DNA of 64,000 nt, from NCBI GenBank assembly GCA_033286805.1, contig GCA_033286805.1_4727.1; one strand, given 5' to 3'. The position numbers and the translations under genes were made by a program. The notes below the pieces were generated by a model, which was given only the letters and a program-made list of their open reading frames with translations, was not told the origin of the DNA and searched no databases. The stretch is from a phage. Below, in pieces: positions 2,980 to 53,490 of this stretch (positions within the stretch are counted from its first letter, which is position 1; each line of letters begins with the position of its first letter).

Positions 2980-5592
2980 TTAAGCGTCCGGCGTAAAATC
3001 AAAAGGAATGTCCGTACGAATGATATCGTAACGTTTTCCTAGGAAATAAAACTCTTCGGGAACCTGACCAGGAATAATGCTATCGCCGATGAACTGCGGA
3101 TACGCCCAGATGTACTGAGTGAGTCCTTCGAACATATCCAGGTTATTTGCATGGTTACCCATGATACGTTTCCAGAGTTCGCGTTTATACGGTGTTTTAA
3201 CATCGAATCCATAAAGCGGTGCAAGATCTTCACCAGGAACAAATCCCAGGTAATAATGGATCTGACTAACCGGGAAACCAAGCGTATCTCGCGGAATGGT
3301 GATCGCTTGCTCTGCCTTGGTGACATGCGTCTCAATAATCCAGTCGTAGCACTCCGAATAGAACCGGTCGAATTTCTCTGGGTTATACCACGCTTTGGGA
3401 AGATTGAGTTTCTCCGTGAACGCGTTCGACATGATCGTCGGCAAGAACGGAAGAACACCGGTTTTGATCTGCGTGTATTTCGATTTTACCCGATTAACCA
3501 AATTCCAGCAACTGTATCCTAACTGTTCGTTACAAAACTCAACGTAGAGATCGTAGTCACCACCGGATAATGGGTTGTTAATATCACCGATGTCTGCGGC
3601 ATATTTGTTGGGATATCGGTTATTGAAAGCCAGTTTGGTTTGGTAATCGTAGATACACGGTTTGTTGTTCGCTGTATTGATCCACCACCAGGGTTCACCT
3701 ACTTGCACACAAATGTCCTGGACATGGGGGTAGATGATATCAGCAAACGCGGTTAACACATCCCCTAACCACGCCATCGCCTGTTGGTTACATGGAGACA
3801 GCAACCAGGACGGTGGTGTGTATCCGGTTGCTGCGATGTTTCCTTCCCAATCCTGCTGCGCCCACTCGAACGGGCAGGCTGTACTCATCAATTCGTAACT
3901 TAAACTGATGGTGACAGAGAAATGGTGTTTTGCGGCGTATGCAGCGAAAGCTTCATGCCATGCGATACAGGGTGGATTTAATACATCCGTGGTGTTCACC
4001 AGTAACTTACCTGCACTTGGCGTCCAGACAGTATCGTAGAAATGCGACATTCCAACATAGTGCACTAATTCATCCTGATATCCAGCATAAACCAGGTTTT
4101 CAAATACACGCTCTGGCGTGATGTTGTAATGGTCATCATAAGCGGTTATCGCACGAAGTTCGTGTGGCGTACAATGATGGCGATTAACCGTCATTTCCTG
4201 ATACACCCCATCGATAGGAAGAATCTCGAGGGTTAAACCAAGATCGATCGGTGTTTCCAGATAGGTCGTTTCTGTAGCACCTTCTTTATAATGTCGAGAA
4301 CTCATGCTGAACATCAACGACGTTACCGATTCGAGTTCGATAGGCTCGTCAGCATAGAACCCCGCCATTGCGTCATTGAAATCGATCGTTACGATTGCGC
4401 TTCTACCGTCTTCAGAGACATCGGTGGCGTATCGGGTTAATGAGATATACTGACGGCTATCGTCTTTGTGTACGACGGTTAAAACCGGCGGGTTTTCGGT
4501 ATCTGCAAAGTTACGCTGATCGCCAGTAAACGTGATCTTCGCTTTAAAGATCAAACCGAATAACGACGTCATGGGATCATACGCAATACAACCGTGATCC
4601 AGCGTATCCGTTGTCCGCCATTCTATCCCGACCAACCCGTTAGCGGTATGGCATCGCATATACGCATTAAGGACCATGTCTTCACTGACAACCGCGAAGT
4701 TCTCTGTTGACTGACCGTTGATAATCCAATACATCGGTTGCCAGAGGTTACGCGTACCTTTTGCGTAGCGGTAGGTTGGCGCGCCTTTAGGGTTGCCGTT
4801 ATTAAGATGGAATACAGCAGTACCTTGATAATGGTCGTTCGTATTAATCGGAACACTGTAAGCATCACCGAGATCCGTACGTTCCACCTTCTTGACTGTT
4901 GCGTTTTCAAATAACCCACGCAGCGCGGGTAAACCGATATCATCAGGCGCGTTTTCTCGACGAATCGCATCCGCGATGCGGTGGGCTAGGGCGGGGTAAA
5001 TGGTCTCACCCTGTTGTAGGTTTGCAAGACCTACAAAGCGATCGGGAGCGATGCCAGCAATCAATAACTCAACATCACCCTTCGTTCTATCGTCATTAAG
5101 ATATTTCAGTCCGGTAAGGTCAAGATGCTGAATAAGCGACAACAGGTTGTATTTACGGTTTTCAACAGTTAGTACAAGATCGCCTGCCCAAACCAAACTT
5201 CCCTCATCCGCTGTTACTTTAACGGATTGTCGGCCTGTGGTAGACGTTGTTGTCGTTTTATTTAATTGTCCTTGTAGGAAGTCGGTTGCGAGGTCAAAGG
5301 CAATACCGTAACGGTCAGCGACCGCTTGCATGATTTCACGTAACTGGGTATCTTCTTCAATGATAATCTTGACAGGTATTCCCAAGAACGCTTTAGCGAG
5401 GTCTCGTTTAACCAACGAGACGAATACGGATTTGTAGTATCGGCTTCCATCTTTCCCTTTAAAAAGAATGGAGGTTGTTTCGGGTGCCGATAGAACACGT
5501 GCAAATACAACATCGTCGGAAGTAAGAGAAAGTCCGTTTTTCTCGTTGACCAATCTTAGTATTTCATTTTGCGCGGTTTCATGTAACTTCAT
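2980..5592 (-). CDS. putative tail fiber/tailspike-like protein (shared N-terminal module, paralog A)
   Basis: 870 aa; N-terminal ~150 aa (KRDLAKAFLGIPVKI ... ADRYGIAFD) shared with ORFs at 11326, 15669 and 52039; large divergent C-terminus; sits beside the tail fiber genes. Confidence 0.55.
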   Translation of the reverse strand: MKLHETAQNEILRLVNEKNGLSLTSDDVVFARVLSAPETTSILFKGKDGSRYYKSVFVSLVKRDLAKAFLGIPVKIIIEEDTQLREIMQAVADRYGIAFDLATDFLQGQLNKTTTTSTTGRQSVKVTADEGSLVWAGDLVLTVENRKYNLLSLIQHLDLTGLKYLNDDRTKGDVELLIAGIAPDRFVGLANLQQGETIYPALAHRIADAIRRENAPDDIGLPALRGLFENATVKKVERTDLGDAYSVPINTNDHYQGTAVFHLNNGNPKGAPTYRYAKGTRNLWQPMYWIINGQSTENFAVVSEDMVLNAYMRCHTANGLVGIEWRTTDTLDHGCIAYDPMTSLFGLIFKAKITFTGDQRNFADTENPPVLTVVHKDDSRQYISLTRYATDVSEDGRSAIVTIDFNDAMAGFYADEPIELESVTSLMFSMSSRHYKEGATETTYLETPIDLGLTLEILPIDGVYQEMTVNRHHCTPHELRAITAYDDHYNITPERVFENLVYAGYQDELVHYVGMSHFYDTVWTPSAGKLLVNTTDVLNPPCIAWHEAFAAYAAKHHFSVTISLSYELMSTACPFEWAQQDWEGNIAATGYTPPSWLLSPCNQQAMAWLGDVLTAFADIIYPHVQDICVQVGEPWWWINTANNKPCIYDYQTKLAFNNRYPNKYAADIGDINNPLSGGDYDLYVEFCNEQLGYSCWNLVNRVKSKYTQIKTGVLPFLPTIMSNAFTEKLNLPKAWYNPEKFDRFYSECYDWIIETHVTKAEQAITIPRDTLGFPVSQIHYYLGFVPGEDLAPLYGFDVKTPYKRELWKRIMGNHANNLDMFEGLTQYIWAYPQFIGDSIIPGQVPEEFYFLGKRYDIIRTDIPFDFTPDA

Positions 5593-5614
5593 TAAAAACC
5601 TCAGCCCTTTAGAA

Positions 5615-6256
5615 TTAAATGTACTGCTTACCGCCCACGAAGGAAGTTAACCAGTTCCCGCTGACGAGTTGTGATACCCAGCCTGGAACGGCTCTACCAT
5701 TCTGGCTCATGATGTTACCACACCAACCAGGGAATCCGGGACGGATGTAATAGAAAGTTAAATTGTAGAGATGGCAATTCCATACCGCAACGTTATGTTT
5801 ACCAGAAACCGCTTTAAAGACAAACGCGACAGGTAACGGAGACGATAACAATTCGGTCACAGGGACGGCTGACCAGTTCGCATTCGCGTTCCATGGCTGC
5901 CAGGTATGGCTACGCGAGTCACCGTTAACGTTACCGTTGCTACCGCGTCCGCCCGCGTTCCACCATAGCGACGGACTCATGTTCTTAAGTGAGGTAAATT
6001 GCTGTGGTGGAATATTCGGAATGATAACAGGGTTGGTACCTTGTCCGTGTTTCTTTTCTTTTGCGTTCACATACCCGCTTATCGATTCCAGGTATTTGGT
6101 ACCAGGATAATTGTTCTGGACTTGTGTCGCAATATCACGAACGTCGAACGTCCAGCAGATCATGGTGTTGTAGTAAGCGTCGGTGTTATCGTGCCATGAG
6201 TTACCATCTTGTAAACGTGCGCCGCTATTCGGTGTTTTATCTGTGCTTATAGCCAT
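5615..6256 (-). CDS. hypothetical protein
   Basis: 213-aa ORF, Trp/Asn/Gly-rich; no motif recognised. Confidence 0.5.
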   Translation of the reverse strand: MAISTDKTPNSGARLQDGNSWHDNTDAYYNTMICWTFDVRDIATQVQNNYPGTKYLESISGYVNAKEKKHGQGTNPVIIPNIPPQQFTSLKNMSPSLWWNAGGRGSNGNVNGDSRSHTWQPWNANANWSAVPVTELLSSPLPVAFVFKAVSGKHNVAVWNCHLYNLTFYYIRPGFPGWCGNIMSQNGRAVPGWVSQLVSGNWLTSFVGGKQYI

Positions 6257-6438
6257 GGTGTTGTCCTATACGTTGGTGGTTGAGGTGGCGGATATCGGAT
6301 GCGTGTTGTCGTCAGGTAATACATACAGAAACGCCCACTGATAAAACAGTAGCTTCTTTTAAATGGAATTTAGATATCGCGTATTTCTACCTCGTTTCTA
6401 TTCTCAAAAAGGAAATTTCATACGATGACGCCATAGCA

Positions 6439-6468
6439 GCTCCTCCTTCCCTGACGGGTTGGAGGAGC
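6439..6468. terminator. GC-rich stem-loop
   Basis: GCTCCTCC / GGAGGAGC arms; loop TTCCCTGACGGGTT is the reverse complement of the loop of the hairpin at 41502; immediately after the stop of gene 6477..6983. Confidence 0.35.
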
Positions 6469-6476
6469 ATACTTAA

Positions 6477-6983
6477 TTACTTACTGATAACCTCAACGGA
6501 GTTGGGATCAGCGATCAATGCACGGTCGGTAGAACAATTGAAGAAGACCGTACCAACACCATCACCGTTCGAGTTCAGGGTTGAACTTGCGTAAGACAGG
6601 GTTGGTTTATTCATGCGGTAGAAGCGTTCGCTGGTTGCGGTATTGAACCCCAGGTCAACGTAGTCTTTCACCGTGGTATACAACTGGGTGGACTCGAAAA
6701 CGGTTACCGGAGAGTCGACGGTAAATTGACTGCCTTCGTCCACAACCAGAACTTTATCGTTCCAGATTTCAGTGGTTGAGAACTTCGGTTTCCAATGTTC
6801 GAATTCCTGGGTTGCACCCCAGCAAGAATACACAGCGAGATTGCTGTTCTTCTCGACAGGTTTCAACCCCACCAGTTGTGTCAGGTCTTTATCCAGGTTC
6901 GGTAAACCTTCCAGCGTAGCACACCCACCCAGAGAAAGCACCATTAGCATACCAAGAACGATCGCGCAAAGTTTCTTTGTCAT
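6477..6983 (-). CDS. putative lipoprotein
   Basis: N-terminus MTKKLCAIVLGMLMVLSLGGC has a signal peptide and lipobox-like LGGC; 168 aa. Confidence 0.5.
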   Translation of the reverse strand: MTKKLCAIVLGMLMVLSLGGCATLEGLPNLDKDLTQLVGLKPVEKNSNLAVYSCWGATQEFEHWKPKFSTTEIWNDKVLVVDEGSQFTVDSPVTVFESTQLYTTVKDYVDLGFNTATSERFYRMNKPTLSYASSTLNSNGDGVGTVFFNCSTDRALIADPNSVEVISK

Positions 6984-7024
6984 CGGATTTCCTCATGTGT
7001 TAACGGGAGTGATTTCCATAGTAA

Positions 7025-7441
7025 TTACACAGTTGTAGGAAATTCCGGCCAATCGATATTTGGTGCAGCATCGGTATCGACAGCAGTCACCGCATCAGTG
7101 TAATCCAAAACAGCATTAAGTCGGGTCGTTTCTTCCTGAGTCAGTTTTCGCCCAGCCCGTAATTTTAACTGAATAAGATCGATGGAAGCCAGCGCAGAAT
7201 CAATCAAAGATTGTTTTATCTGTTCTGCCTCGGCGACGAGATCTTCGTGTTGCCGCTCGGGTTCCGGAGGTGCGGTAAACTCACCATTTGAGTATGACCA
7301 ACCTATTCCAGGTGACACAGCCTCCTTATCGTCGATATGAACCAACTGCTGATTGTCGAATATATCGAGCTCTGCTTCACCGTCGTAAACAATCGTGTTT
7401 ACTACCACCCCATTTTCAATAACAGCGTATGATGTACTCAT
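7025..7441 (-). CDS. tail fiber assembly chaperone (Tfa-like)
   Basis: Start taken at internal MSTSYAVIENG (ATG ~7441), abutting the fiber gene stop. C-terminal region (LIQLKLRAGRKLTQEETTRLNAVLDYTDAVTAVD ... IDWPEFP) resembles lambda/P2-type Tfa proteins. Confidence 0.6.
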   Translation of the reverse strand: MSTSYAVIENGVVVNTIVYDGEAELDIFDNQQLVHIDDKEAVSPGIGWSYSNGEFTAPPEPERQHEDLVAEAEQIKQSLIDSALASIDLIQLKLRAGRKLTQEETTRLNAVLDYTDAVTAVDTDAAPNIDWPEFPTTV

Positions 7442-10400
7442 TACATAAACTCCTCGATGATGCAAATCCCATTAGCACCACGCCCACCAGGCTTAGCGGT
7501 TCCTGAGTAAGAGTTATCGTAAGCACCGCCACCACCCGAACCAGGCGCGAGGCCGTTATGGGCGGTGCCAACACCAGCGCGACCGCCACCGCCCCAATAT
7601 GACGCACCCCCACATCCACCGACGGCAAGAGTACCGGCTTGTCCATCGTTACCGTCTCCGCCCGGAATGCGTATATCCCCGGTAGTAGGTACGCCCCCAT
7701 AGCCACCGCCAGTGTTTGTGACAGTTGTTTTTCCTGCGCCTTGCCCGCCGGGAGCAGTTAGCAGGGATGCAAATTTACTATCCCCACCCCCGTTCCCAGA
7801 CGTCGCCCCAGAGCCACCGGAACCACCAGAACCAATTACAACAGAATAACTAGCAGCTGTTACCGTTATAACCGAAATTACTGTTCCGCCAGCGCCTCCC
7901 CCAGCGCCAAAAAACGTTTCGCTGTTGGAATAAGCCTGACAGCCACCGCCGCCACCGCCGCCACCGGTTATTGTTACTCTAATCCGTTTTGTTCCTTGTG
8001 TTGGGGTGTACGTCCCTGACGATGTGAAAACACGCATGTTCAGTAAACGTCCGACATATCCGCTAGAATCGGCTAAACCAAGATCTTTAGCTGCTAACGT
8101 GATATTAGCTGTACCGTCAAACGGTTTACCGTTAATCGTGCGCGCGGTCTGCAACTTCGTCGCCGTTGCTGCGTTTCCTGATGTGTTCTGGTTCCCCGCA
8201 GCGTTAACACCCGGCAGATTGATGTTCGCACTACCGTCGAAAGATACCCCACCAATGGTGCGGGCTGTTTTCAGTTTTGTCGCCGTGGCAGCATTACCGG
8301 TTGTGTCTTGGTTACCGGTGGTGTTTACCCCAGGCAGGTTGATATTTGCCGTTCCGTTAAATGAAACACCGCCAATCGTCCTTGCTGTTTGAAGCCTCGT
8401 CGCGGTAGCGGCGTTACCCGTCGTGTTCTGGTTTCCGGTTGTGTTCACACCAGGGATACTATCTTTCGAGGTGTAGATCTGTGCCCATTCTGACCAGTTC
8501 GAATCGGCCGCATCACGACGTGAACGTAGGTAAGCTGGAGCGTATGCACCTGAGGTACCTGACCACCCAATGAGGATTTCACCTTCACCGACCGATGAAG
8601 CCCCTTTAAGATGAATGACGTTACCATAAGCGGTGGGATACCCGTTATTGTACGCTTCATACATCTGGATGCCCGCATTGCTGCCCTGAGCCGTGTTAGC
8701 TAATGCCGTAACACGACCTTTGGAGGCGAGAGCGGTAATACTGAAGCTAATATCCTTAGTACCGTCAAAGGCGACCCCATTAATCTTCCGTGCTGTTTGG
8801 AGTTTCGTGGCGGTAGCCGCATTACCAGAGGTACTCTGATTACCTGCTTTGTTCACGCCAGGCAAATCAATGTTGGCTGTTCCATCAAAGGACACGCCCC
8901 CTATGGTTCTCGCTGTCTGGAGTTTTGTTGCTGAGCCAGCGTTTCCGGAAGTGCTTTGATTACCTGCCGCGTTGACACCTGGTAGGTTAATGCTAGCAGA
9001 GCCATCAAAAGAAACTCCACCGATCGTGATTGGTGTTTTCAATTTCGTGGCTGTCGCAGCATTACCCGTCGTATTCTGATTGCCAGCCGCATTAACGCCT
9101 GGTAATGCGATATCGGTCGTACCATCGAACGCGACACCACCGATTTTACGGGCAGTCTGTAGCTTGGTCGCTGTAGCCGCGTTGCCGCTGGTATTTTGCG
9201 TGCCCGCTTTATTTACGCCTGGTAAATCAATGTTCGCAGTACCATCAAAAGAAACACCCCCGATGGTTCTCGCGGTCTCAAGTTTGGTTGCGCTTCCTGC
9301 GTTTCCGCTGGTGTCTTGGTTTCCCGCTGCATCAACACCCGGTAGACTGATGCTGGCCGAACCATCGAAACTCACACCACCGATCGTAACAGCGGTTTTC
9401 AATTTCGTAGCGGTTGCAGCGTTCCCCGTGGTATTTTGGTTACCTGTCGCATTCACACCCGGTAATGCAATATCCGCTGTTCCGTCAAAGGCAACGCCAC
9501 CGATTCTACGTGCAGTTTGTAGCTTGGTTGCACTAGCAGCGTTACCGCTGGTATTCTGGGTGCCAGCTTTGTTAACACCAGGGAGATCGATGTTAGCAGA
9601 ACCATCGAAGCTAACGCCACCTATCGTTCTTGCAGTAGCAAGTTTAGCTGCTGTAGCAGCGGCGTTACCGACTTTTAACCATTCGCCCCATGGACCATCC
9701 TGGCCGTTCCATGATGCCGTTAAACTACGTACGTAAATATTGCCGGTACATACAGTGTAACGTTGCGTTCCACCGAATTGCCCGGTTGGGAGCACTTCAA
9801 TGTAACCTGCGGCATTTGCTTCAGGGAAATTGTGGGCGACGTCCGCGTTCGTTGATACTGGTTTAGACCAAATACCCACAGACGCTTCAACCGGACCGTA
9901 CGTATTCAGATTTGCGTCGGTGGGAAGTTGTCCTCGAAAACGCTGGAATTGTGTTGCCGATAACCCCAACGTTGTTTGCATGCTTTCAATGCTGGATTGC
10001 TGAAGTAACGTCCGTGCTGTCGACGTAATCACGGTAAGCGCAACTTTATTAACACCGGTGAAATACGGGAGTTTGTCTGCTGATGTCGCTAAACCTGAAA
10101 AGGCGGTCAGTAATGCGTTAAGGGGCTGCTTCCCAGCTAACGCATTTGTTACCGTCGTTGCGAAATTAGGATCACTTCCTATAGCTCGAGCCAGCTTATT
10201 AAGCGTATTTAGCGTCGCTGGTGACGAGTCGATCAGCGCCGTGATCGCACGCATCACAAATTCCGTGTTGGCTATCTGTCGACTGCTATTGTTAACTGCT
10301 GCGGTGGGCGCTGCTGGCGTACCAGTGAATACAGGGCTATTAAGATCCGCCTTGAGGGCGATGAGACGTTTAAGCGCTTCAACATCAACTTTCAGGTTTT

Positions 10401-11319
10401 CCCATCCGATGAGAGAACCACCACTGTTGGTATGATAACGGTTGTACCAGAAGTCACCGTTAACGCCAAAAAAGAATATACATTTCTCTTCGTTTTGTGG
10501 ACCGGAACTATTTCGTGATGAGTCGATATATTTGATTTCAATAAGACCGCTAAACACCACTCCTGGGATTATATTGTTGTCTCCAGCTGATTGTGATACT
10601 TGGTACATCCCCGGGGTTGCAGCTTTAACCCACGTTAAGAATTCTGTTACTCCAGCGTTACCGCTGAAACGCTTAACGTCGGTAAGTATCGCCCCATAAC
10701 CGAACATACCGGGTAAAGCAACTCGCCCATCGGTACGGTCACGAATATCTGTTGCAACAACAGGCAATTGTTTACGAACGGCATTAACCGCTTTAGGCGT
10801 GGCCGATTTTGTCTCGTCGTCGCTATCGGTTTCATTACTTAGAATAGTTAAACCGCGTGTAGTAGTAGTTGCATCAGGAAGAAATGCGTTATCCAACACC
10901 TTAAGCTGTACTGCACTCGTATTACTAACAACGACATGCACTTGACAGTTAAGAACGCTGGTTGCGCCTTCGGCAGGCGTAGGCTTATATCTTTCTGGTG
11001 CACTGCAGACGGCAATCAGAACACCTTGGTCGTCATACAGACCGATCTCACGTACCCAGAACCCACCTTGACCAGCAGGAATAATACCCTCAACGATAAT
11101 CCTAGTTGTGCTATCACCATCCGCATGGATATTAGAAACTTCCCCACGATAAACTTCGTGAACAAGCGCTGTTTGGCTGGCGGTAGGGGTTGGGATCGAG
11201 CCGTTACCATCACCAACGGCAAAGTGTGTGATTTTTAGTTTCTCACCGTCGGGAAGTAACGCAGCGGTGATACGTTCTGCTCCTTTATCGGTAACTACCG
11301 TTATATATGCTGTACTCAT
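7441..11319 (-). CDS. long tail fiber protein
   Basis: 1292 aa. N-terminal tail-fiber/collar-like domain (PTPTASQTALVHEVYRGE); eleven 39-aa tandem repeats; C-terminal polyglycine-rich region (GGGGGGGG ... GGGAGG). Confidence 0.75.
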   Translation of the reverse strand: MSTAYITVVTDKGAERITAALLPDGEKLKITHFAVGDGNGSIPTPTASQTALVHEVYRGEVSNIHADGDSTTRIIVEGIIPAGQGGFWVREIGLYDDQGVLIAVCSAPERYKPTPAEGATSVLNCQVHVVVSNTSAVQLKVLDNAFLPDATTTTRGLTILSNETDSDDETKSATPKAVNAVRKQLPVVATDIRDRTDGRVALPGMFGYGAILTDVKRFSGNAGVTEFLTWVKAATPGMYQVSQSAGDNNIIPGVVFSGLIEIKYIDSSRNSSGPQNEEKCIFFFGVNGDFWYNRYHTNSGGSLIGWENLKVDVEALKRLIALKADLNSPVFTGTPAAPTAAVNNSSRQIANTEFVMRAITALIDSSPATLNTLNKLARAIGSDPNFATTVTNALAGKQPLNALLTAFSGLATSADKLPYFTGVNKVALTVITSTARTLLQQSSIESMQTTLGLSATQFQRFRGQLPTDANLNTYGPVEASVGIWSKPVSTNADVAHNFPEANAAGYIEVLPTGQFGGTQRYTVCTGNIYVRSLTASWNGQDGPWGEWLKVGNAAATAAKLATARTIGGVSFDGSANIDLPGVNKAGTQNTSGNAASATKLQTARRIGGVAFDGTADIALPGVNATGNQNTTGNAATATKLKTAVTIGGVSFDGSASISLPGVDAAGNQDTSGNAGSATKLETARTIGGVSFDGTANIDLPGVNKAGTQNTSGNAATATKLQTARKIGGVAFDGTTDIALPGVNAAGNQNTTGNAATATKLKTPITIGGVSFDGSASINLPGVNAAGNQSTSGNAGSATKLQTARTIGGVSFDGTANIDLPGVNKAGNQSTSGNAATATKLQTARKINGVAFDGTKDISFSITALASKGRVTALANTAQGSNAGIQMYEAYNNGYPTAYGNVIHLKGASSVGEGEILIGWSGTSGAYAPAYLRSRRDAADSNWSEWAQIYTSKDSIPGVNTTGNQNTTGNAATATRLQTARTIGGVSFNGTANINLPGVNTTGNQDTTGNAATATKLKTARTIGGVSFDGSANINLPGVNAAGNQNTSGNAATATKLQTARTINGKPFDGTANITLAAKDLGLADSSGYVGRLLNMRVFTSSGTYTPTQGTKRIRVTITGGGGGGGGCQAYSNSETFFGAGGGAGGTVISVITVTAASYSVVIGSGGSGGSGATSGNGGGDSKFASLLTAPGGQGAGKTTVTNTGGGYGGVPTTGDIRIPGGDGNDGQAGTLAVGGCGGASYWGGGGRAGVGTAHNGLAPGSGGGGAYDNSYSGTAKPGGRGANGICIIEEFM
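8095..8454 (-). repeat. second block of the same 117-bp coding repeat, ~3 copies
   Basis: Fiber residues ~956-1075 repeat the same 39-aa unit after an intervening non-repeat domain. Confidence 0.6.
8740..9663 (-). repeat. in-frame tandem coding repeats, ~8 x 117 bp, inside the tail fiber gene
   Basis: Repeated unit encodes IGGVSFDGSANIDLPGVNKAGTQNTSGNAATATKLQTAR. The same periodicity produces spurious antisense ORFs at 9080..9736. Confidence 0.7.
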
Positions 11320-11325
11320 GGTGTT

Positions 11326-11853
11326 TTATCCTGGATAAATAGTGATGATATCACCAATGACGGTTGTGGCACCGGCGTAAAGATGAGCCGGAGATACATC
11401 ATGTTGGTTTGTCACAGTAAGATCCAATCGACCACGCCAAACCATGGAGGTATTCGCGATGGGGATAGAAATCTTTTTGGATATATCGTCACGAAAATCA
11501 ATAACAGTGGCAAGGGTAACCGCATCAAAATCAACATCGGGATCAAAGACGAACCCGTATTGATCTGAAATCGCCCGAATAATGGCATGTATAGTTGTTG
11601 TCTCAACAGACTCTAAAACGATTTTTACCGGTATTCCTAAAAATGCCTTCGCGATATCGCGTCGGGCGTAAACGATAAAGCATTCACCGCACCACTTTGT
11701 TCCTTCATTTGCTGTGACGATCACTTTTGCCCTGTTAGCACCAGAACTCCCATCCAAGGTTAATGTAAGATCGGAGTTGCTGAACACGCTACCGTTACGT
11801 TGGTTTATCAACGTAATCAGTTCGTCTTTCCATGGTGGGTAAAGTGAACGCAT
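11326..11853 (-). CDS. short paralog carrying only the shared N-terminal fiber/spike module (paralog B)
   Basis: Start set at MRSLYPPWKDEL (ATG verified at 11851-11853) by alignment with the other three paralogs; contains ARRDIAKAFLGIPVKI ... SDQYGFVFD. Confidence 0.5.
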   Translation of the reverse strand: MRSLYPPWKDELITLINQRNGSVFSNSDLTLTLDGSSGANRAKVIVTANEGTKWCGECFIVYARRDIAKAFLGIPVKIVLESVETTTIHAIIRAISDQYGFVFDPDVDFDAVTLATVIDFRDDISKKISIPIANTSMVWRGRLDLTVTNQHDVSPAHLYAGATTVIGDIITIYPG

Positions 11854-11966
11854 AAGCGCACCCTCCTCCAACAATCAAATTAAGATATATAACTCCTCGA
11901 AACCAAAGTGCGATTCGAGGTAAGCGTAAACAGTCCAGACGACCGCATAAAATTCCGCGCATATTA

Positions 11967-11998
11967 CCCCTCTACCCCGACAAAGCGAGATAGAGGGG
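11967..11998. terminator. GC-rich stem-loop
   Basis: CCCCTCTA / TAGAGGGG inverted repeat in the intergenic region downstream of gene 12059..15655. Confidence 0.4.
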
Positions 11999-12036
11999 AG
12001 GTTAATACGATTATGCTATTGCACTCCAAAGTTCAT

Positions 12037-12053
12037 GGGGCGGTAACCGCCCC
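12037..12053. terminator. short perfect palindrome hairpin
   Basis: GGGGCGG-TAA-CCGCCCC immediately after the stop of gene 12059..15655. Confidence 0.45.
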
Positions 12054-12058
12054 ATCGG

Positions 12059-15000
12059 TTAAATTGTCGGTTTTACATCACGTAATAAGGCAATATAATA
12101 GCCTAATCCTCGGAGGATCTCCCCACTCCAGAAACCAAAATACATTCCGTCTCTGCCGAGATTAGCGCTATCTGGTGCGGGACTCCACCCACCGTTCATT
12201 ACGTCATCAACGGTGTAGCGGTTGATGTAGTTCTCAACGATTTCGTTATACGCATTAACAGCAACAGAATAGCCTTTATCGTTGGGATGTCCGTACAACA
12301 TTGCTAACGACGCACCAGCCAACCATAATCCTGCCATGTGACCAGTAAAGTCATTAGGGATAAAAGCAGGGGGTTTATCCATCGGAAAATCCGTAGGAGA
12401 TTGATAGGCGTTTTCCTGTTGATACGTAAACAAGAAATCAATCCAATGACTGATGTAAGTGGTTAATTTCTCAGGGACGGCTAAACCACGATCAAGCAGT
12501 CCAGCATAAAGCCGCACCGCTGAAAAGAAAGCCCTCGGCTGATAACCAGACCATGCTGTCTGATCGCCGAAATGGTACATCGTAAAATCATTAACTTTTG
12601 ATCCGCTTGGCGCATCCCAACGATCCCACACGTACGCACTTGCCCCTGGCCCTAAAACCCCGAATTTCTGATAATACCACTGCTGCGAGTCATACCAGAA
12701 ATTCACAACATTCTGAATCATGAGGTCACGTCGTTCAGCCGATACGTCCATATCCAGGAAGACCCATGGATGTTGGTAGCCGGGATAAGGCTGACCACGC
12801 CAACTGTCGAACGTCGGTGCGTTAGGGATATAGTTGTTAGAGAACGGAATAATACCCGGAGTATAAGGCAATGGATCCAGACGTTGGTTGACAATCGTAC
12901 AATCGCCAACACGTAATGTTCCCTCCGCCTCAAAGGTTGCTTTTAACGTAAACAGCATGGTATATCCGTCATCCGTGGTGTAAGTTGACGGTGGATTGTT
13001 GATAGCGTAAAGCTTAAATACCCCTTCAGCGATATCGCTGTCATCAGGCAAGAACAGAATTTCAGTTGAGCCATCACCCCACACAGGTGCAGAAGGTTTA
13101 GGGTCAGTGTCAACATGGTTCGGTTGATACCCTGAGAGCGTCCACCCATTCGCCGAAAGCGTCAATGTATTTCTTGCTGTGGTGGCCGGTAGCATATACC
13201 ACCATCGCCAACCATTTGCATCTTCTACACGAACGTTGTAGTCAATCGACGCGAAATAACTGACCTGCCTTACGATCTGTTTTGCGGTTGGATTGAATTC
13301 AAATTGCCCGCCTGCCGCAGTAAGCTGCGCTTTTAGGAACAACCCATCCCAGGAATCTTCCACCGCTTCGCTGAATTCTGTTGTAATTGCGACATCGTCT
13401 TTCCAGCCGACTTTATCAGCCGATATCAACACAGAACCTGTAACAGCATCGCCGGTTGGCGTTGAAGCTTCATCAACCGCATCAGCAGGAATCAACGAGC
13501 CTATTTTGAAATCCCATTCTTTCGGCTCAGCACTGGAAGGTAATACCAGCTTGTATGTTTTGGCTTTCGCTTCGGTTTTGTCCAAAGAAAGCGATAATGA
13601 GATCTCAACCGGAATTGCAATACCTGCCGTATCCTTACCTCCGCAGGTTACACGAAGAATTGAATTACGATTGACACGGAACGGAATGGCCTGCTGTTCA
13701 AGATAAATTTGTGCTGAAGATGCTTGAATCACGATCCAGCCATCGGTATCACGTGTGATTGTGAACGGTGCTTTCGATGGGTACGTATACGTGTAAGCGA
13801 TACCGTCGGTGTCGTAACGATCGGTTCCTTTTACTTGACGGAAGAACTTATCGTTGGCGTCAATACGGGTATATTCTTCAATCGTAAACAAAGATGCCTT
13901 GTACGCTTTCTGATAACGCTCCTGCTGCGTTAAACGATATAAGGTGTAGGCTGCTTCACAAAACCATTGTTCGGCGTCTGACGCGTTTCCCATGTAGTCT
14001 CTGGTGACCGGCACCTGGATCGGTCGGTTATGCTGACACTCGTTCGTTTTGATGAGGTATCCGCCATATTCAACAGGAACACGCGGTGCCCATGCAACCA
14101 AGTAAGAACCGCTGACGGATTTATCTTTGAGTACGATGGTACCTACCTCATCGTCAGTACACGCTTCAAGATCGTCTCCGTCAGCACTTACGTAACGTTT
14201 TGTGCGTAACGCAACTTTCTCGATAGGGAACACCGTACCCTTTGTATCCCAGTCAATCGTCCCATCATCATTGGTTTTGAACACATCGGCGTTCAAATTC
14301 TGCCAGCCGAGTTTACCCTCATAGACCTGAACAACAAGATCCATGTATTCCCCGAACGTTGGTGCCCCATGTGTTATTTTTCCAATACCGTTGGTGAATG
14401 TAACCGCTGTGTCATGGAAACCGCCATGTGTTGGGTAATCGTCTTTTGCAAGAGGATAATGGGCCAACACAGGTTGTTTACCATTAACAATCCAGTTAGC
14501 GATCCAGCGTGTCGGTGTATCCGGTGGTTCAAGGCCTGCATAGAACGCTTTTATATACGCATCGAACGATGTCTCTGCTAATGTGAGATAATGCGCTTTA
14601 AGCTTGGTGTCATCCGTTGTATGACTGAATATACCCGCACCCAGAATTAACAACGACTGTCCTTCTGTTGTTGCGTCACCATCCGGTTGTGCTTCTTGTC
14701 GTGTTGCTGCAATGAAATGACGGTTGTTTACCATGACCCCGCTTTCATTTAACACGTAATGATCGGTTTCTGGGTCGGTAAACGTTCCTGTGTTTCGGGT
14801 TAAGAATCTTGCATGGCCATAACCAACGAAATTAACCGGCGACGCTGTAATCACCCATTTACCGATAAGTTGAGCAACATCATTATAACGCTCGGATGCG
14901 GTGATTTGTTTCACGTACCAGTCTTTATGGTTAAATGTCCAAAGCAGGAAGTAATAAGTTGTATCGATTTCCATCACTGGGAACGTCGGCGTTAACGGCT

Positions 15001-15655
15001 CCAGCATTAAGTAGTTGCTCCAGTCAATCTGTCCGCCAACAACCGATGGGGTAATCTCTAATAACTGACACCATTCATAACGGTCCGGTACACTACTGTA
15101 CGTTGTTGGTAAAGGTAACTTGTATACGCCAGTACGATTCAGATCGAACGCTTTTCTAGCCGATCCTAAATCAACATAAATACTCGACGATGTGCTTGCA
15201 TCAGATGCCTCCAAAGCACCTAACGTTGACCGATACATTGAGATGAACAACGTATCTTTCCAGTAAGGGTTATCCTTGATTGGTTCTAAAGCGATTTGTG
15301 CGGAGATGCTGTTCTGTGTCCCTAACTGGTATGTTGCATTTAAAGATTCTTCTGTGAAATAACTTTCTGCAATCGTCAGATGGAACTGCTCGTTCAATAA
15401 CGCGAGTGCGGCGCGGCCAGTAACATCCTCGTTACCGGTTTCTTTTTTCACGATCGCGCCGAACGGAAACAGTGTCGCGAATGACCGTTTTGGTTTATTA
15501 ACCGTAACCGTCCCTGTGTAATTTCCAACACCGTCAAGTTTTTGACTATCGCCAACAGCAGTGACTGCGATACCATCAGCCGGGATATTTGTTTTATTTA
15601 GCACATTGAGTTGGTCAACCAGATCCTGCTTATCGTCAGGTAAGAATGTCGCCAT
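12059..15655 (-). CDS. large hypothetical protein, probably structural
   Basis: 1198-aa ORF between fiber/spike paralogs; no catalytic motif recognised. Structural role inferred from context only. Confidence 0.55.
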   Translation of the reverse strand: MATFLPDDKQDLVDQLNVLNKTNIPADGIAVTAVGDSQKLDGVGNYTGTVTVNKPKRSFATLFPFGAIVKKETGNEDVTGRAALALLNEQFHLTIAESYFTEESLNATYQLGTQNSISAQIALEPIKDNPYWKDTLFISMYRSTLGALEASDASTSSSIYVDLGSARKAFDLNRTGVYKLPLPTTYSSVPDRYEWCQLLEITPSVVGGQIDWSNYLMLEPLTPTFPVMEIDTTYYFLLWTFNHKDWYVKQITASERYNDVAQLIGKWVITASPVNFVGYGHARFLTRNTGTFTDPETDHYVLNESGVMVNNRHFIAATRQEAQPDGDATTEGQSLLILGAGIFSHTTDDTKLKAHYLTLAETSFDAYIKAFYAGLEPPDTPTRWIANWIVNGKQPVLAHYPLAKDDYPTHGGFHDTAVTFTNGIGKITHGAPTFGEYMDLVVQVYEGKLGWQNLNADVFKTNDDGTIDWDTKGTVFPIEKVALRTKRYVSADGDDLEACTDDEVGTIVLKDKSVSGSYLVAWAPRVPVEYGGYLIKTNECQHNRPIQVPVTRDYMGNASDAEQWFCEAAYTLYRLTQQERYQKAYKASLFTIEEYTRIDANDKFFRQVKGTDRYDTDGIAYTYTYPSKAPFTITRDTDGWIVIQASSAQIYLEQQAIPFRVNRNSILRVTCGGKDTAGIAIPVEISLSLSLDKTEAKAKTYKLVLPSSAEPKEWDFKIGSLIPADAVDEASTPTGDAVTGSVLISADKVGWKDDVAITTEFSEAVEDSWDGLFLKAQLTAAGGQFEFNPTAKQIVRQVSYFASIDYNVRVEDANGWRWWYMLPATTARNTLTLSANGWTLSGYQPNHVDTDPKPSAPVWGDGSTEILFLPDDSDIAEGVFKLYAINNPPSTYTTDDGYTMLFTLKATFEAEGTLRVGDCTIVNQRLDPLPYTPGIIPFSNNYIPNAPTFDSWRGQPYPGYQHPWVFLDMDVSAERRDLMIQNVVNFWYDSQQWYYQKFGVLGPGASAYVWDRWDAPSGSKVNDFTMYHFGDQTAWSGYQPRAFFSAVRLYAGLLDRGLAVPEKLTTYISHWIDFLFTYQQENAYQSPTDFPMDKPPAFIPNDFTGHMAGLWLAGASLAMLYGHPNDKGYSVAVNAYNEIVENYINRYTVDDVMNGGWSPAPDSANLGRDGMYFGFWSGEILRGLGYYIALLRDVKPTI

Positions 15656-15668
15656 TATTTACTCCACC

Positions 15669-16499
15669 TTAATCGTAACTAAAATAAAGTTTGCTGCTGA
15701 CGCCGCTATCGGAATGAGGTTTTAATACCAGAACAGAGCTTCCGAACGACGGAAGTATTGGAACATCTAAATCGTTCGCATCGGCAACTTTTCCATTATA
15801 AACGACATTGGCTGTTGTGATGAGTTCCCAAGCTAAGGTATAACTCATTGAAATCAGCGACGAGGCTAAACGGAATGCGTTGTATCCTTCTGGAGTATCT
15901 CCAACCGACATCGAACGTATCGCATCTTGCGGTGGTAAATTTAGCTTGATGCCGTAGGTGCTGAATGTGTGGAAATCCCCTTGTTTACTATCTTCTGGAT
16001 AATACGAGGTTAGCGGTTCTCGCACCGTAATCAGTTCGCTAATATCGGTACTTACATCTTTTCGTGCGAGGAATTGAAACGTACCGTGCCATGATGCCGA
16101 TGCGTCAGAACGAACGGGAACAGATATGGTTTTCTCGCCGCTTTCAAATTTAACCTGTGATGCTAACGCTGAAGAATCAAAGATCGTTAAATCGATCTTC
16201 AACCCATATTTCTTAAACAGCTGCGTTAAGCAGTCTGCTATCGTCGTCTTATCAGCAACGACAATAAAAGGTTGGTGTTTGATAAAGAGCTTATTAATGT
16301 CTCGACGTTGAAGATAAACCTGTACGGGGTCTTCGACGTAGTAAACCGATTGTGGTGCGGGGGCTATAGAAAGGCGTAACCGACCCGATGCACCATACCA
16401 GGCTGGCGTTAACGTAACGTCTGACAGGGACAACGGATGCTGGAGATAGGCGTTTATTTTAGATAACACTTCCTCCTGCCATGATGCTTCAGGATACAT
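15669..16499 (-). CDS. paralog with shared N-terminal fiber/spike module (paralog D)
   Basis: 276 aa; LQRRDINKLF ... FKKYGLKIDLTIFD ... ISVPVRSDASASWHG aligns with the module in 2980, 11326 and 52039. Confidence 0.5.
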   Translation of the reverse strand: MYPEASWQEEVLSKINAYLQHPLSLSDVTLTPAWYGASGRLRLSIAPAPQSVYYVEDPVQVYLQRRDINKLFIKHQPFIVVADKTTIADCLTQLFKKYGLKIDLTIFDSSALASQVKFESGEKTISVPVRSDASASWHGTFQFLARKDVSTDISELITVREPLTSYYPEDSKQGDFHTFSTYGIKLNLPPQDAIRSMSVGDTPEGYNAFRLASSLISMSYTLAWELITTANVVYNGKVADANDLDVPILPSFGSSVLVLKPHSDSGVSSKLYFSYD

Positions 16500-16556
16500 G
16501 CTGACCTCATAGATGATCGTTGATAGGAAAGAGACCTAATTCATACCATGGGAACC

Positions 16557-16614
16557 TCAAAAAAAAAAACGAAAAATAGGGAAACGGTGTTCATCCTTTT
16601 TAGGGATGAACACC
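16557..16614 (-). terminator. rho-independent terminator
   Basis: 12-bp stem CGGTGTTCATCC / GGATGAACACCG, followed on the minus strand by a long U tract (complement of the A run at 16557-16569); just downstream of gene 16636..17211. Confidence 0.7.
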
Positions 16615-16635
16615 GCGTACCGTTATATCGAACGA

Positions 16636-17211
16636 TTAGTAAGGAATCAGATCGTTAAGCTTTTCTTCTTCAACGACAAAGAAGTTGTTCTGGTCGTCTA
16701 AATCTGTTAACAGGACTTGTCCGACAGTAAAGCAGGTGCCGCCCTTCTTAGGTATCCATACCGGCTCATTCGTTACCTTATCGGGATACCATTTGAAACG
16801 ATTGGTATCCAAGAAGAACGCTGCTTTGTTCGCTTTATCGGTTGAACGATAGCTAACCAACGCAGGCCACTCAATCCAGGTGTTTGTGCATGGTACATGT
16901 AAAGGATACCATGCGCGCCAGCGTTTGCCTGGGTTGCTAGGATCAACCCAATACTCGGCAGTCAATACAGCATCTTTATAATGTTTCTGCATTAACATTT
17001 CGAGCACAAGCTCATTACCTTTTGATGCATCTAAAGTCACTTCCGTCATATAAAGAGATTTAGGTAACTCAGACTGTTTTGCGGGTGTTACAACACCGGT
17101 AACCAACGGTCTGCTCGGTTTACGTTTCTGTTCTTTCCGACGTGTGTAAAAGAATAGTCCGACAGATACAGCAACAAGTACAATAAACAACACTACCTTA
17201 ATCCAATTCAT
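16636..17211 (-). CDS. hypothetical membrane-anchored protein
   Basis: N-terminal hydrophobic helix MNWIKVVLFIVLVAVSVGLFFY then basic stretch; 191 aa. Confidence 0.5.
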   Translation of the reverse strand: MNWIKVVLFIVLVAVSVGLFFYTRRKEQKRKPSRPLVTGVVTPAKQSELPKSLYMTEVTLDASKGNELVLEMLMQKHYKDAVLTAEYWVDPSNPGKRWRAWYPLHVPCTNTWIEWPALVSYRSTDKANKAAFFLDTNRFKWYPDKVTNEPVWIPKKGGTCFTVGQVLLTDLDDQNNFFVVEEEKLNDLIPY

Positions 17212-18380: not shown

Positions 18381-18434
18381 GATGATTTCCTTCTTTATTA
18401 GGATGATTACATTTAGTCAGTTTAACAGCATAAA

Positions 18435-18459: not shown

Positions 18460-18473
18460 CATACGGATTTGTT

Positions 18474-19884: not shown

Positions 19885-19900
19885 GGCTTTTCCCGATCGT

Positions 19901-47903: not shown

Positions 47904-48461
47904 TTACTCCATCCATACTTCTTCGTCGTAATGATTTTCTATCGCATTACGCCAAAAACGCACGGTGTCCAAACTAATCGGCGCATAAAAATGCTGATCA
48001 ACGCCGACATTAAGTCCGTTGGCCTTCGCTAACATACAGCGATGAATATGACCGAATAGATTGAAGTAGCCTGGGTTTCTTTCGCTGGGCTTATGGCATA
48101 GCCAGTAGGATTCGTCATTGCTAATCGGCAACACCAACGGATGTTCATAAACCGCAGCAAACCCCATACCGAGCAATTTATCACGCCATGCTTCAAAGCT
48201 TAATCCTGTTGCTTTGTATGCGTCTTCGTCCCAATTCCCCAATACCAATTGAACCTGGATATCAGAACGAATGGCTTCCACGAACTCGAACTTACCCCAA
48301 TCACCTAAATGCCATAACACACTGTTCTTTGGAAGCTTGTTGATGGCTTTCAGCATATGCTGGTTCATATCGGCGACGCTTGCGAACGGACGGCGTGAAT
48401 ACGTCCATGTACGCTCGCTATCAAAATGGGTATCCGACATAAAGAAGATGGACGGGGTCAT
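47904..48461 (-). CDS. calcineurin-like metallophosphoesterase
   Basis: Ordered motifs FMSDTHFD, LWHLGDWG, LVLGNWDE and FGHIH match the D-x-H / GD / GN-[HW]-D/E / GH-x-H phosphoesterase signature. Confidence 0.65.
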   Translation of the reverse strand: MTPSIFFMSDTHFDSERTWTYSRRPFASVADMNQHMLKAINKLPKNSVLWHLGDWGKFEFVEAIRSDIQVQLVLGNWDEDAYKATGLSFEAWRDKLLGMGFAAVYEHPLVLPISNDESYWLCHKPSERNPGYFNLFGHIHRCMLAKANGLNVGVDQHFYAPISLDTVRFWRNAIENHYDEEVWME

Positions 48462-48940
48462 TGATCTAATTGCTCCAGAAATGCACGACCCGATTTACTT
48501 GCTTTTAAATGCTGTTCTGCGGAAGTAAGCAGAAGATCGGTTGGTGTATATGCAGCGCTACCTTTCCACGCTGTTTTCAGTTTACCCTTTTCGATACTGA
48601 ACTGAATCAGTTGTTGGGTACCGAAGTTAAGCGTGTTCGTCGCGGCGCTAAATACACCACCCATCATGCTGTAACCAAAGACTTTCACGTTTTCCGTGTA
48701 GAAGTCATTGTCGATCAATTTGTTCTGGAGCTCGAGTTGGTCGGACGGCAGCAATCCCCCATCGAAGACGCTTAAAATACCAGCCAGGCGATACATACTC
48801 ACCTTTCCTGAAACGCCCACCACGTAGTTGCCGTACACGGTTTCTTCCAGTTTAGCAACAACGGTGCGATCGTCGGAGGTTTTCATCGAAACCTCAATAC
48901 CATCACCAACTTCTGTTAACGTTAAATCAACGATACTCAT
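48458..48940 (-). CDS. hypothetical protein
   Basis: 160-aa ORF; 4-bp overlap with the downstream gene. Confidence 0.45.
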   Translation of the reverse strand: MSIVDLTLTEVGDGIEVSMKTSDDRTVVAKLEETVYGNYVVGVSGKVSMYRLAGILSVFDGGLLPSDQLELQNKLIDNDFYTENVKVFGYSMMGGVFSAATNTLNFGTQQLIQFSIEKGKLKTAWKGSAAYTPTDLLLTSAEQHLKASKSGRAFLEQLDQ

Positions 48941-51970: not shown

Positions 51971-52038
51971 TTCATGCTGTATTTGTTGCAAGATCGTATG
52001 ACGTATATGCGTTGTACTTATTTAATAAGGCAGAATAA

Positions 52039-53490
52039 ATGAAACTTAAACAAAGCTGGAAAGACGAACTTCTCGCGTTAGTAAATAGCAAAAACAGTTT
52101 ACAGCTGACATTAGCCGACGTAAAATTTGAGTTAACTGAACCGGTAAGCGAAGTGCCCGGAACGGTTGTTGTTACGATCAAACCGAACGATGATAGCCGT
52201 TACTTTAACGAGCAGTCTCTGACCTACATTCGTCGAGACATCGCTAAAAACTTCACCGGGATCCCGTTACGGGTTATCGTTAAAAATGATACCGCCGTAA
52301 GGGATATCATCAACACGATCGCTGAACGTTACGGATTGGTATTTGACACAACCGTCGACTTCCTCGAATCCGAACTGAATAAACAAATTACGTTCGAAGA
52401 CACCGGTATTAAAGACATTACGGTTCCGGTTGCAAACACGTCTTATGTTTGGGCTGGTAATCTTCAGTTCAATATCGCTAACGATACGTTGAGCTTGATT
52501 ACGATCATCAAGCAAACCAATCTTACGAATCTGGTTTATCTGGATGGTGTTGAATCTAACACATCGGGTTCGTTACTATTAGCAACGACCTCGGTTATCG
52601 GCGAAAACGGAAATGCCGAAACAACTGAAGGTGTCCTTGACGCCGCGTACTTCCAGAATATCCTGAACGTCATGGTTCGTTATGGTGATATTACCAGCGA
52701 ACAAATGCAACAAGCAATGCAGACAATTAACGGAAGCGAAGACGCTCGTAGAGTAGAGGTGCGGTCATACGGTGACGCCGAATTATTGGTAACCACCAAG
52801 AAAGATTGGGTTATCGGTAGCCTTAAGGGTGCTATGGTTGTTGGTCACGCTTCACCTAAACCAATCCAATACGTTCTTAAAACAAAAGGCGGCACCATTA
52901 TATTGTCATTAGATGGTTGGACAAATGTCAATATCGATTGGGGTGATGGGAATAAGACGACGCAGGACTCCGGCGATAATGAATATCAGCACAATTACGC
53001 GGACACTACAGAACGTACGATCGTCGCTACGGGTACCCCTACCAACGTTGAAGATACAGACGTACAGCAAAGCTTCACCGGTGGTAACATCACTGAAATC
53101 GTTGACTGGAACAACGGATTACCTAAGGCCCCATCATTACTTGCGGCGAACAGTTTAATTAAGGTTCCCGATTATATCCCGGCATACTGGACATCGTTAG
53201 AAGGTATGTTTACGCGATGCAGCGCTATTAACGACGTGAACATCACCAAATGGAACACCCGCAACATTACTTCAATGAAGGACCTCTTCTACGGTTGCGC
53301 TACGTTCAACCAACCGATCGGTTCGTGGGATGTTTCGTCTGTTAAGAATGCAGACAATATGTTGTCTGGGTGCTTCGCGTTCAATCAGGATCTGAGTGGT
53401 TGGACATTCCCGGCAGGCACTTCACACATCAACTACGACGCCATGACCGCCGCATGGCAGGCTGGTTATAAACCACACTTCACCGAGTAA
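52039..53490 (+). CDS. fiber/spike-module paralog C with BspA/DUF285-like C-terminal repeats
   Basis: N-terminal module (RRDIAKNFTGIPLRVI ... AERYGLVFD ... VPVANTSYVWAGNL) shared with 2980, 11326 and 15669. C-terminus has MF..C..FNQ..W[DN]VS repeats typical of DUF285/BspA-type repeats. Confidence 0.6.
   Translation: MKLKQSWKDELLALVNSKNSLQLTLADVKFELTEPVSEVPGTVVVTIKPNDDSRYFNEQSLTYIRRDIAKNFTGIPLRVIVKNDTAVRDIINTIAERYGLVFDTTVDFLESELNKQITFEDTGIKDITVPVANTSYVWAGNLQFNIANDTLSLITIIKQTNLTNLVYLDGVESNTSGSLLLATTSVIGENGNAETTEGVLDAAYFQNILNVMVRYGDITSEQMQQAMQTINGSEDARRVEVRSYGDAELLVTTKKDWVIGSLKGAMVVGHASPKPIQYVLKTKGGTIILSLDGWTNVNIDWGDGNKTTQDSGDNEYQHNYADTTERTIVATGTPTNVEDTDVQQSFTGGNITEIVDWNNGLPKAPSLLAANSLIKVPDYIPAYWTSLEGMFTRCSAINDVNITKWNTRNITSMKDLFYGCATFNQPIGSWDVSSVKNADNMLSGCFAFNQDLSGWTFPAGTSHINYDAMTAAWQAGYKPHFTE

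Follow-up and report, generated by a model that had tools for sequence, protein, structure and literature searches.

We analyzed a 64,000-nucleotide (nt) stretch of phage DNA, contig GCA_033286805.1_4727.1 of assembly GCA_033286805.1 (hereafter the window), and found that it encodes five proteins that share an N-terminal module of the DUF7941 family and differ in what follows it. The nearest relative of positions 1-20000 is Escherichia phage vB_EcoM_Goslar, which was the sole megablast match (94.7% identity, 99% of the query), and by blastn the window is collinear with Goslar over all 64 kb at ~96% identity, barring a few indels. By nucleotide identity (~95-96%), the window belongs to a Goslar-like Escherichia coli jumbo phage and represents a different isolate. 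Goslar (genus Goslarvirus, genome of 237 kb) is a nucleus-forming jumbo phage of the Chimalliviridae (10.64898/2026.04.21.720040). The open reading frames (ORFs) at 2980, 11326, 12059, 15669 and 52039 are orthologues of Goslar gp86, gp91, gp92, gp93 and gp161, and we named the window versions gp86L, gp91L, gp92L, gp93L and gp161L. Lengths and gene order are the same as in Goslar, and the amino acid (aa) identities are 98.6%, 98.9%, 97.4%, 99.3% and 96.3%, respectively. The family, its members in this phage lineage and a model of their role were covered by a preprint that describes the structure of the Goslar virion and its analysis by mass spectrometry (Basu et al., bioRxiv 10.64898/2026.04.21.720040, 22 April 2026). 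The shared-module pattern of these genes was therefore already known and its finding here is a rediscovery.

A preliminary description of the window, made from the letters alone, had listed four of these proteins, and all four ORFs were recovered as listed: gp86L (2980-5592, minus strand, 870 aa), gp91L (11326-11853, minus strand, 175 aa), gp93L (15669-16499, minus strand, 276 aa) and gp161L (52039-53490, plus strand, 483 aa). Their N-terminal domains are homologous, as had been proposed. The motifs RRDIAK.F, YG..FD and ANTS.VW.G are present in the alignment of the four proteins, which has 17 invariant columns. BLASTP of the N-terminal regions was significant for five of the six pairs, namely gp161L with gp86L (E = 2.4e-36 over 247 aa), gp91L (5e-28) and gp93L (4e-17), gp86L with gp91L (7e-21), and gp91L with gp93L (1e-10); the weakest pair was gp86L with gp93L (E = 0.01). 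All four scored above the gathering score of 27 bits for Pfam DUF7941 (PF25613), with 149.6 bits for gp86L, 88.1 for gp161L, 57.3 for gp91L and 37.6 for gp93L, and all four also matched PHROG families 1037 and 2935, annotated as virion structural protein. The shared part had been put at ~150 aa, which describes the N-terminal domain; gp86L and gp93L match the whole 276-position Pfam model, comprising the N-terminal domain, a linker and a C-terminal domain.

The count of four missed one member. We searched all 477 stop-to-stop ORFs of the window with a 129-domain family profile, built from the family domains recovered in an exhaustive search of cluster representatives. This search uncovered gp92L (12059-15655, minus strand, 1198 aa), whose divergent N-terminal domain at aa 8-141 (15233-15634, minus strand) matched with E = 6e-9, while the next ORF after the five members scored only E = 0.8. 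As judged by this profile, the window holds five module proteins and no others. gp92L had no Pfam match at E<=0.01, was assigned to no family by Pfam and NCBIfam, and was missed by a four-sequence profile built from the window N-terminal domains. Basu et al. count gp92 as a DUF7941 protein on the grounds of hidden Markov model searches and AlphaFold predictions (10.64898/2026.04.21.720040).

We characterized the region that each protein carries behind the module, hereafter the cargo. In gp86L, the N-terminal domain (aa 1-160; 5113-5592, minus strand; family profile E = 2.1e-48) is part of a complete DUF7941 module (Pfam, aa 2-277, 1.6e-43). It is followed by the domains of an N4-type non-contractile sheath protein, NCTSP_N (PF23844, aa 285-450, 1.2e-10, 41.3 bits) and TIM-barrel_NCTSP (PF23845, aa 476-837, 3.5e-85, 286.5 bits; 3082-4167, minus strand), both above the cut-off of 27. 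Residues 528-789 align to N4 gp64 (PDB 9lc0, E = 4.3e-30). In coliphage N4, gp64 and gp65 form a sheath and gp65 is the receptor-binding protein (PMC13434306). A role for gp86L as a sheath around a non-contractile tube is unlikely, since the Goslar tail is contractile and its sheath was modelled from other proteins; the domains are shared, not the sheath role. The TIM barrel has ~40% identity to proteins annotated as non-contractile tail sheath or lateral tail fiber in Phapecoctavirus and Vequintavirinae.

The cargo region of gp92L spans 920 aa. Residues 279-1190 (12086-14821, minus strand) match phrog_2871, annotated as tail protein, with 2e-298, and tblastn found relatives in 526 phage records over the full length at ~28-42% identity, annotated as tail protein, tail fibre or glycosyl hydrolase. 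For the gp86L cargo and the gp92L cargo alike, hundreds of relatives (28-42% identity) occur in coliphages of ~130-150 kb (Phapecoctavirus, Vequintavirinae) and in others. In Phapecoctavirus Ro121c4YLVW, a 152 kb myophage, homologues of the two cargo regions are encoded by neighbouring genes of the baseplate module (gp053 and gp054, L003 4938-9976), which suggests that the two types of cargo domain travel or function as a pair. Such a pattern would be expected if host-recognition domains were exchanged among phages and re-anchored by a lineage-specific N-terminal plug.

gp161L carries its N-terminal domain at aa 1-160 (52039-52518, plus strand; family profile 2.9e-54), followed by a linker, a beta-rich region and a region of DUF285/PARCEL leucine-rich repeats (LRRs) at aa 359-483 (53113-53487, plus strand). 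These repeats had been likened to those of DUF285 and BspA. The DUF285 part of that assignment holds, with a Pfam match (PF03382) at aa 385-456 scoring 77.7 bits against a cut-off of 25 (E = 7.9e-22), whereas the BspA part does not, as no Pfam LRR_5 (PF13306, BspA-type) match was found even at E<=1. The NCBIfam PARCEL repeat TIGR02167 matched marginally, at 30.3 bits against a cut-off of 30. About four W-anchored repeat units of 18-25 aa can be seen by eye between aa 384 and 472, and the predicted structure of the repeat region superposes on solved LRR proteins, indicating an LRR solenoid fold. The repeats of gp161L are best classed as DUF285 type, and the RefSeq name "BspA family" is a naming convention. 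Such a domain had been considered unusual for a phage fibre. In fact, DUF285 is the commonest cargo of the family, present in 10 of the 54 long members, and it recurs in several PHROG phage families; the other Pfam cargo domains in these 54 proteins are the T-even GP38 adhesin (2), LRR_5 (2), Laminin_G_3 (1) and NCTSP (1).

The remaining two proteins carry no cargo. gp93L is a complete DUF7941 module; its Pfam match lies at aa 56-275 (2.2e-9; model positions 63-274 of 276), and the family profile matches aa 13-172 of the stop-to-stop ORF (7e-37). gp91L consists of the N-terminal domain (Pfam, aa 7-150, 2.2e-15) and a disordered tail of ~25 aa. Its longest ORF begins at a TTG at 11874.

We predicted the fold of the N-terminal domain with AlphaFold2 from gp91L and a diverse alignment of 47 sequences, because a gp161L model made from close homologues left this domain at a predicted local distance difference test (pLDDT) score below 50. 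The gp91L model had a mean pLDDT of 88.4; scores exceeded 90 over aa 1-150, and the final ~25 residues were disordered. A Foldseek search of the PDB returned a sole significant match, gp127 of phage phiKZ (9xqd_0, E = 6.3e-7, probability 1.0, template-modelling scores 0.54/0.62); the next match had E = 0.08. Ubiquitin-like matches of the domain were not significant (Rad60-SLD, 0.027; Sde2, 0.048; polyubiquitin, 0.08). The same phiKZ gp127 chain was matched when the 47-sequence alignment was used as a sequence profile (E = 4.6e-11). This broader profile was needed, as the profile of four N-terminal domains had no match in the PDB, and phmmer searches of the PDB with gp92L and with gp161L also gave no matches. 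phiKZ gp127 has been located experimentally in the outer peripheral baseplate, where each star-lobe complex has one gp127, at the end of a band of five gp139 dimers extending outward from the wedge (PMC13250141). The phiKZ outer-baseplate entry is given as PDB 9QXD in the preprint, while the PDB copy has 9XQD.

Comparison with Goslar showed that all five module genes are under purifying selection. Changes were mostly synonymous, with 59 synonymous and 12 non-synonymous codon differences in gp86L, 9 and 2 in gp91L, 99 and 31 in gp92L, 5 and 2 in gp93L, and 30 and 18 in gp161L. The non-synonymous share was highest in gp161L, in which the DUF285 region is the most variable segment (92.8% identity, 9 of the 18 aa changes).

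To place these proteins in their wider family, we ran an exhaustive HMMER search of 1.84 billion cluster representatives, which found at least 344 clusters (50% identity, E<=1e-3). In nearly all of the 150 best matches, which were roughly 50-1537 aa long, the module starts within the first ~25 residues, and module-only proteins of ~146-195 aa were a frequent architecture. By tblastn, the module domain was found in only 30 of 50,697 phage records, all from jumbo phages of 210-307 kb infecting Escherichia, Serratia, Erwinia, Klebsiella, Cronobacter, Xanthomonas, Pectobacterium and Salmonella. Several family members contain complete modules in tandem. P0194 (L004 1631-3190) contains three, each with E<=2e-27, and P0190 also contains three, while P0211 and P0223, on contigs of ~275 kb, have two complete modules followed by a Gp38-type adhesin. 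These proteins can be read as covalent versions of the chain proposed below. Module-only proteins have a conserved L...I....L.GL motif in their tail, which is predicted to be disordered. The motif is kept in gp86L (LLSLIQHLDLTGL) and gp161L, and gp91L ends within it; among gp161 orthologues the tail motif is nearly invariant (T155, I156, I157, L165, Y167). Such conservation would be expected of a docking peptide.

Two further proteins, P0189 and P0216, contain repeats of a partial module, mostly covering the first ~30-80 positions. P0189 matches Pfam Spiralin (2.3e-8), and P0216 shares a cluster with a Mycoplasmataceae protein encoded in a metagenome-assembled genome. DUF7941 has also been reported in Spaid-like proteins of Spiroplasma in a 2026 paper (PMC13375240). 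Based on these three observations, the preprint goes too far in restricting the module to chimalliviruses. The match of gp91L itself to Spiralin (N-terminal ~60 aa, e.g. 11692-11853, minus strand) has an E-value of only 0.052.

The four minus-strand module genes are predicted to be co-expressed, as one operon, with a tail fibre and its chaperone; gp161L lies apart. The fibre is a classical, P1-S-like tail fibre (gp90-like, 1292 aa; 7441-11319, minus strand) with Pfam matches to Phage_tail_fib (1.6e-41), Phage_fiber_2 and Gly_rich_2, followed by the gp89-like assembly chaperone (7025-7465, minus strand; Caudo_TAP, 7.7e-21). The gp91L gene sits immediately 5' of the tail-fibre gene, which starts 6 nt beyond the gp91L stop codon in the same operon. 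The two genes are in frame, and we considered whether read-through could produce a DUF7941-fibre fusion. We rejected this because the gp91L gene ends in TAA, the fibre ATG has a Shine-Dalgarno sequence (AGGA) ahead of it, and an in-frame position is expected by chance in one of three cases. The gp93L gene is translationally coupled to the gp92L gene, with a GGTGGAG Shine-Dalgarno sequence at the junction.

The tail fibre differs in length from that of Goslar (1292 versus 1324 aa). Its repeat-rich center (8454-10055, minus strand) is 65-84% identical to Goslar in several alignment registers, whereas its flanks are ~96% identical; the center is likely a recombination or host-range hotspot. The same operon contains gp88L (6477-6983, minus strand), which has no Pfam family and matches only phrog_9559, and a gp158-like ORF lies at 48458-48940 (minus strand). 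Goslar gp88 (168 aa, ~737 copies) and gp158 (160 aa, ~926 copies) are among the most abundant unmodelled virion proteins (10.64898/2026.04.21.720040).

The gp161L gene had been described as lying beside RNA polymerase and helicase genes. A SNF2-type helicase gene does adjoin it on the plus strand, but the RNA polymerase beta subunit and a second helicase are encoded 1.4-6 kb downstream on the minus strand. A scan for sigma-70 promoters and terminators around gp161L was uninformative, with counts no higher than in shuffled sequence. The gp164-like SF2 helicase (54861-57491, minus strand) has 876 aa versus 524 aa in Goslar. An in-frame insertion of 352 aa (56003-57057), not found in Goslar, interrupts its Walker-A loop (...TGSGK|ANPLT...IVTHN|TAMSQ...). 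The insertion, which carries LAGLIDADG homing-endonuclease motifs and whose last two residues are His-Asn, with Thr next, is probably an intein, with Ala unusually occupying position 1. The window lacks three small genes that Goslar has, gp096 (~500 nt), gp108 (~390 nt) and gp120 (~710 nt); blastn showed clean indels at ~18030-18060, ~23233-23284 and ~29024.

For virion association and filament formation we rely on the published Goslar work. Basu et al. list ten DUF7941 proteins in Goslar, gp22, gp23, gp31, gp33, gp34, gp86, gp91, gp92, gp93 and gp161, of which gp86, gp92 and gp161 add carbohydrate-binding, glycoside-hydrolase or LRR domains. They report more than 2,500 DUF7941 copies per virion, filaments of purified gp22 by negative-stain electron microscopy and head-to-tail dimers predicted by AlphaFold, and they fit a gp126-gp127 dimer into unexplained phiKZ density. 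From this they propose that host recognition involves a "DUF7941 fibre cloud" with its anchor at the peripheral baseplate (10.64898/2026.04.21.720040). Their Table S4 gives, per virion, ~2144 copies of gp23, ~577 of gp22, ~112 of gp33, ~111 of gp161, ~27 of gp34, ~8.5 of gp31, ~4.9 of gp92, ~4.8 of gp93, ~4.5 of gp86 and ~1.2 of gp91. The same table contains evident contaminants, namely thymidylate synthase (~20), a DEAD-box helicase (~10.6) and an HD-domain protein (~1.1). Among the proteins of the types found in the window, only gp161 is clearly packaged, because the other four are no higher than these contaminants. Peptides of all ten members were nevertheless found in one virion preparation, some only at background level. 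This does not fit the earlier suggestion that the module proteins are alternative receptor-binding proteins.

Our preferred explanation, which we consider probable, is that the module is a plug into a baseplate-anchored, head-to-tail DUF7941 network, of which the five window proteins are minor, specialised members. The module would be a building block of the virion surface, anchored at the outer peripheral baseplate. Each protomer probably binds the N-terminal domain of the next one through the linker behind its own N-terminal domain, together with the C-terminal domain if there is one, giving flexible head-to-tail chains whose major building block would be gp23 in Goslar (~2144 copies). The five window proteins would join these chains, and those with cargo would carry differing domains that bind the host surface or process its glycans. 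gp161L would be an abundant adhesin with a short DUF285/PARCEL leucine-rich solenoid. gp86L, with its TIM barrel of the N4 gp64/gp65 type, and gp92L, with a tail-protein domain common to rV5-like and phAPEC8-like myophages, would be low-copy members with glycan-binding or glycan-processing domains, and gp93L and gp91L may be cargo-free chain or adaptor units. Head-to-tail chaining appears to be favoured by the gp22 filaments, the copy number above 2,500 and the AlphaFold dimers of the preprint, and the tandem modules found here agree with it.

Several observations weigh against this network. The filament experiment used gp22 alone, and the chaining of the five window proteins draws on AlphaFold pair predictions in the preprint. 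The Goslar baseplate map has no density for any DUF7941 protein (10.64898/2026.04.21.720040), and the copy estimates of gp86, gp91, gp92 and gp93 are within the contaminant range. The N-terminal domain of gp92L is divergent and lacks a Pfam match, that of gp161L was modelled with low confidence from close homologues alone, and the host ligands and enzymatic activities of the cargo domains are predictions from sequence.

The main rival is a simple adaptor, in which the N-terminal domain docks each paralogue singly on one common baseplate site, like the conserved N-terminal anchor of a modular tailspike, and does not polymerise. This is close to the attachment domain with varied C-termini that the preliminary description had envisaged, and that idea largely stands, since a phiKZ homologue of the domain is located in the outer peripheral baseplate and the C-terminal domains are of differing host-recognition types. 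In favour of the adaptor, each star lobe of phiKZ has one gp127, modelled as just one N-terminal domain docked next to a gp139 dimer, the ~5 copies of gp86, gp92 and gp93 per virion are compatible with six sites, and the cargo diversity of the family fits an anchor-plus-cargo design. More than 2,500 module copies cannot fit six sites, however, and gp161 alone exceeds them at ~111 copies. Moreover, gp22 makes filaments by itself, and covalent arrays of tandem modules exist. We consider a one-site adaptor unlikely, and chaining into filaments is favoured over it.

The network could also be smaller than we propose. If gp86L, gp91L, gp92L and gp93L were assembly factors or contaminants and not stable virion components, the fibre system would consist of gp161L with gp22 and gp23. 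The mass-spectrometry estimates of 1-5 copies, which do not exceed the values for non-structural enzymes in Table S4, and the cryo-electron microscopy maps, in which density is assigned to none of gp86, gp91, gp92 and gp93, are in line with this. It is harder to reconcile with genes that share one operon with the tail fibre and chaperone, with cargo homologous to baseplate, tail and sheath proteins elsewhere, including the gp64 resolved in the N4 virion, and with copy numbers near the six expected for six-fold baseplate attachments. We rate this reading as quite improbable, below the adaptor. Least credible is that gp91L is a decaying remnant or a decoy without function, as had been raised for the module-only copy. 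gp91 does have the lowest virion estimate (~1.2 copies), and the tail of gp91L stops short of the full conserved linker motif. Its few changes relative to Goslar are mostly synonymous, though, and it is not a remnant because it is under purifying selection. The 26 of its 28 best homologues that are 175-aa orthologues from Goslar-like contigs indicate that its length is conserved. In addition, module-only proteins of this size are frequent in the family, the fold of gp91L is predicted with high confidence, and its gene is translationally coupled to the tail-fibre gene.

Two more speculative ideas arise. The DUF7941 module may be a generic self-chaining plug, with the positions of the cargo proteins setting the geometry of the fibre system. 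If members of the gp161L type sit at chain ends or branch points, the ~3,000 modules per virion would form a dense brush of more than 100 short chains of ~0.2 um each. The second idea concerns ancestry. Since the first ~60 residues of the module resemble Spiralin and DUF285/PARCEL is also a surface repeat of Mollicutes, gp161-type proteins may share ancestry with Mollicutes adhesins. We pose the two ideas together and, as a pair, regard them as doubtful.

The ways in which nucleus-forming jumbo phages locate and attach to their hosts are poorly understood. Many DNA-targeting defences fail against these phages, which makes them candidates for therapy. If the network proposed here is correct, a self-chaining module that displays interchangeable adhesins would amount to a separate strategy of host recognition that could be exploited for re-targeting. 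Beyond the preprint, our analysis compares the module independently with phiKZ gp127 in both fold and sequence, surveys cargo across the family, documents natural proteins with tandem modules, points to Phapecoctavirus as the origin of two cargoes, cautions about the background in the mass spectrometry and supplies evidence that contradicts the restriction of the module to chimalliviruses.

The closest known system is Goslar itself, whose DUF7941 proteins show the same shared module and differing C-termini, already published with copy numbers and a host-recognition model. The window differs from Goslar in having the helicase intein and a divergent tail-fibre repeat region and in lacking the three small genes. 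phiKZ gp127 (PDB 9XQD chain 0) has a homologous N-terminal domain with the same fold, but it shares only ~14% identity, has 290 aa and no cargo domain, and its placement comes from an AlphaFold model that was docked in a map at 4.4 A (PMC13250141). N4 gp64 and gp65 (PDB 9LC0, 9YF4) have the NCTSP_N and TIM-barrel_NCTSP domains of gp86L. In the podovirus N4, they are wrapped around the tail tube, whereas in gp86L the domains stand behind a DUF7941 module in a contractile-tailed jumbo phage. The cargo homologues of Phapecoctavirus and Vequintavirinae, such as Ro121c4YLVW gp053 and gp054, have ~40-42% identity to gp86L and gp92L across nearly the full cargo regions. They have other N-termini and no DUF7941, and in the window, fibre genes separate gp86L and gp92L. 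Compared with the DUF285/PARCEL and BspA-like LRR surface proteins of Mollicutes, Listeria and Bacteroides, gp161L has only about four repeats and lacks the context of a signal peptide or lipobox. Modular receptor-binding proteins with conserved N-terminal anchors, such as the phiKZ gp131-gp135 paralogues (PMC13250141 for the gp131 paralogues) and branched tailspikes, likewise combine a fixed attachment domain with variable distal domains. Their anchor fold is unrelated, and DUF7941 also appears to self-chain, with thousands of copies. The dense brush of short chains considered here would differ from the six micron-long filaments estimated in the preprint (10.64898/2026.04.21.720040).

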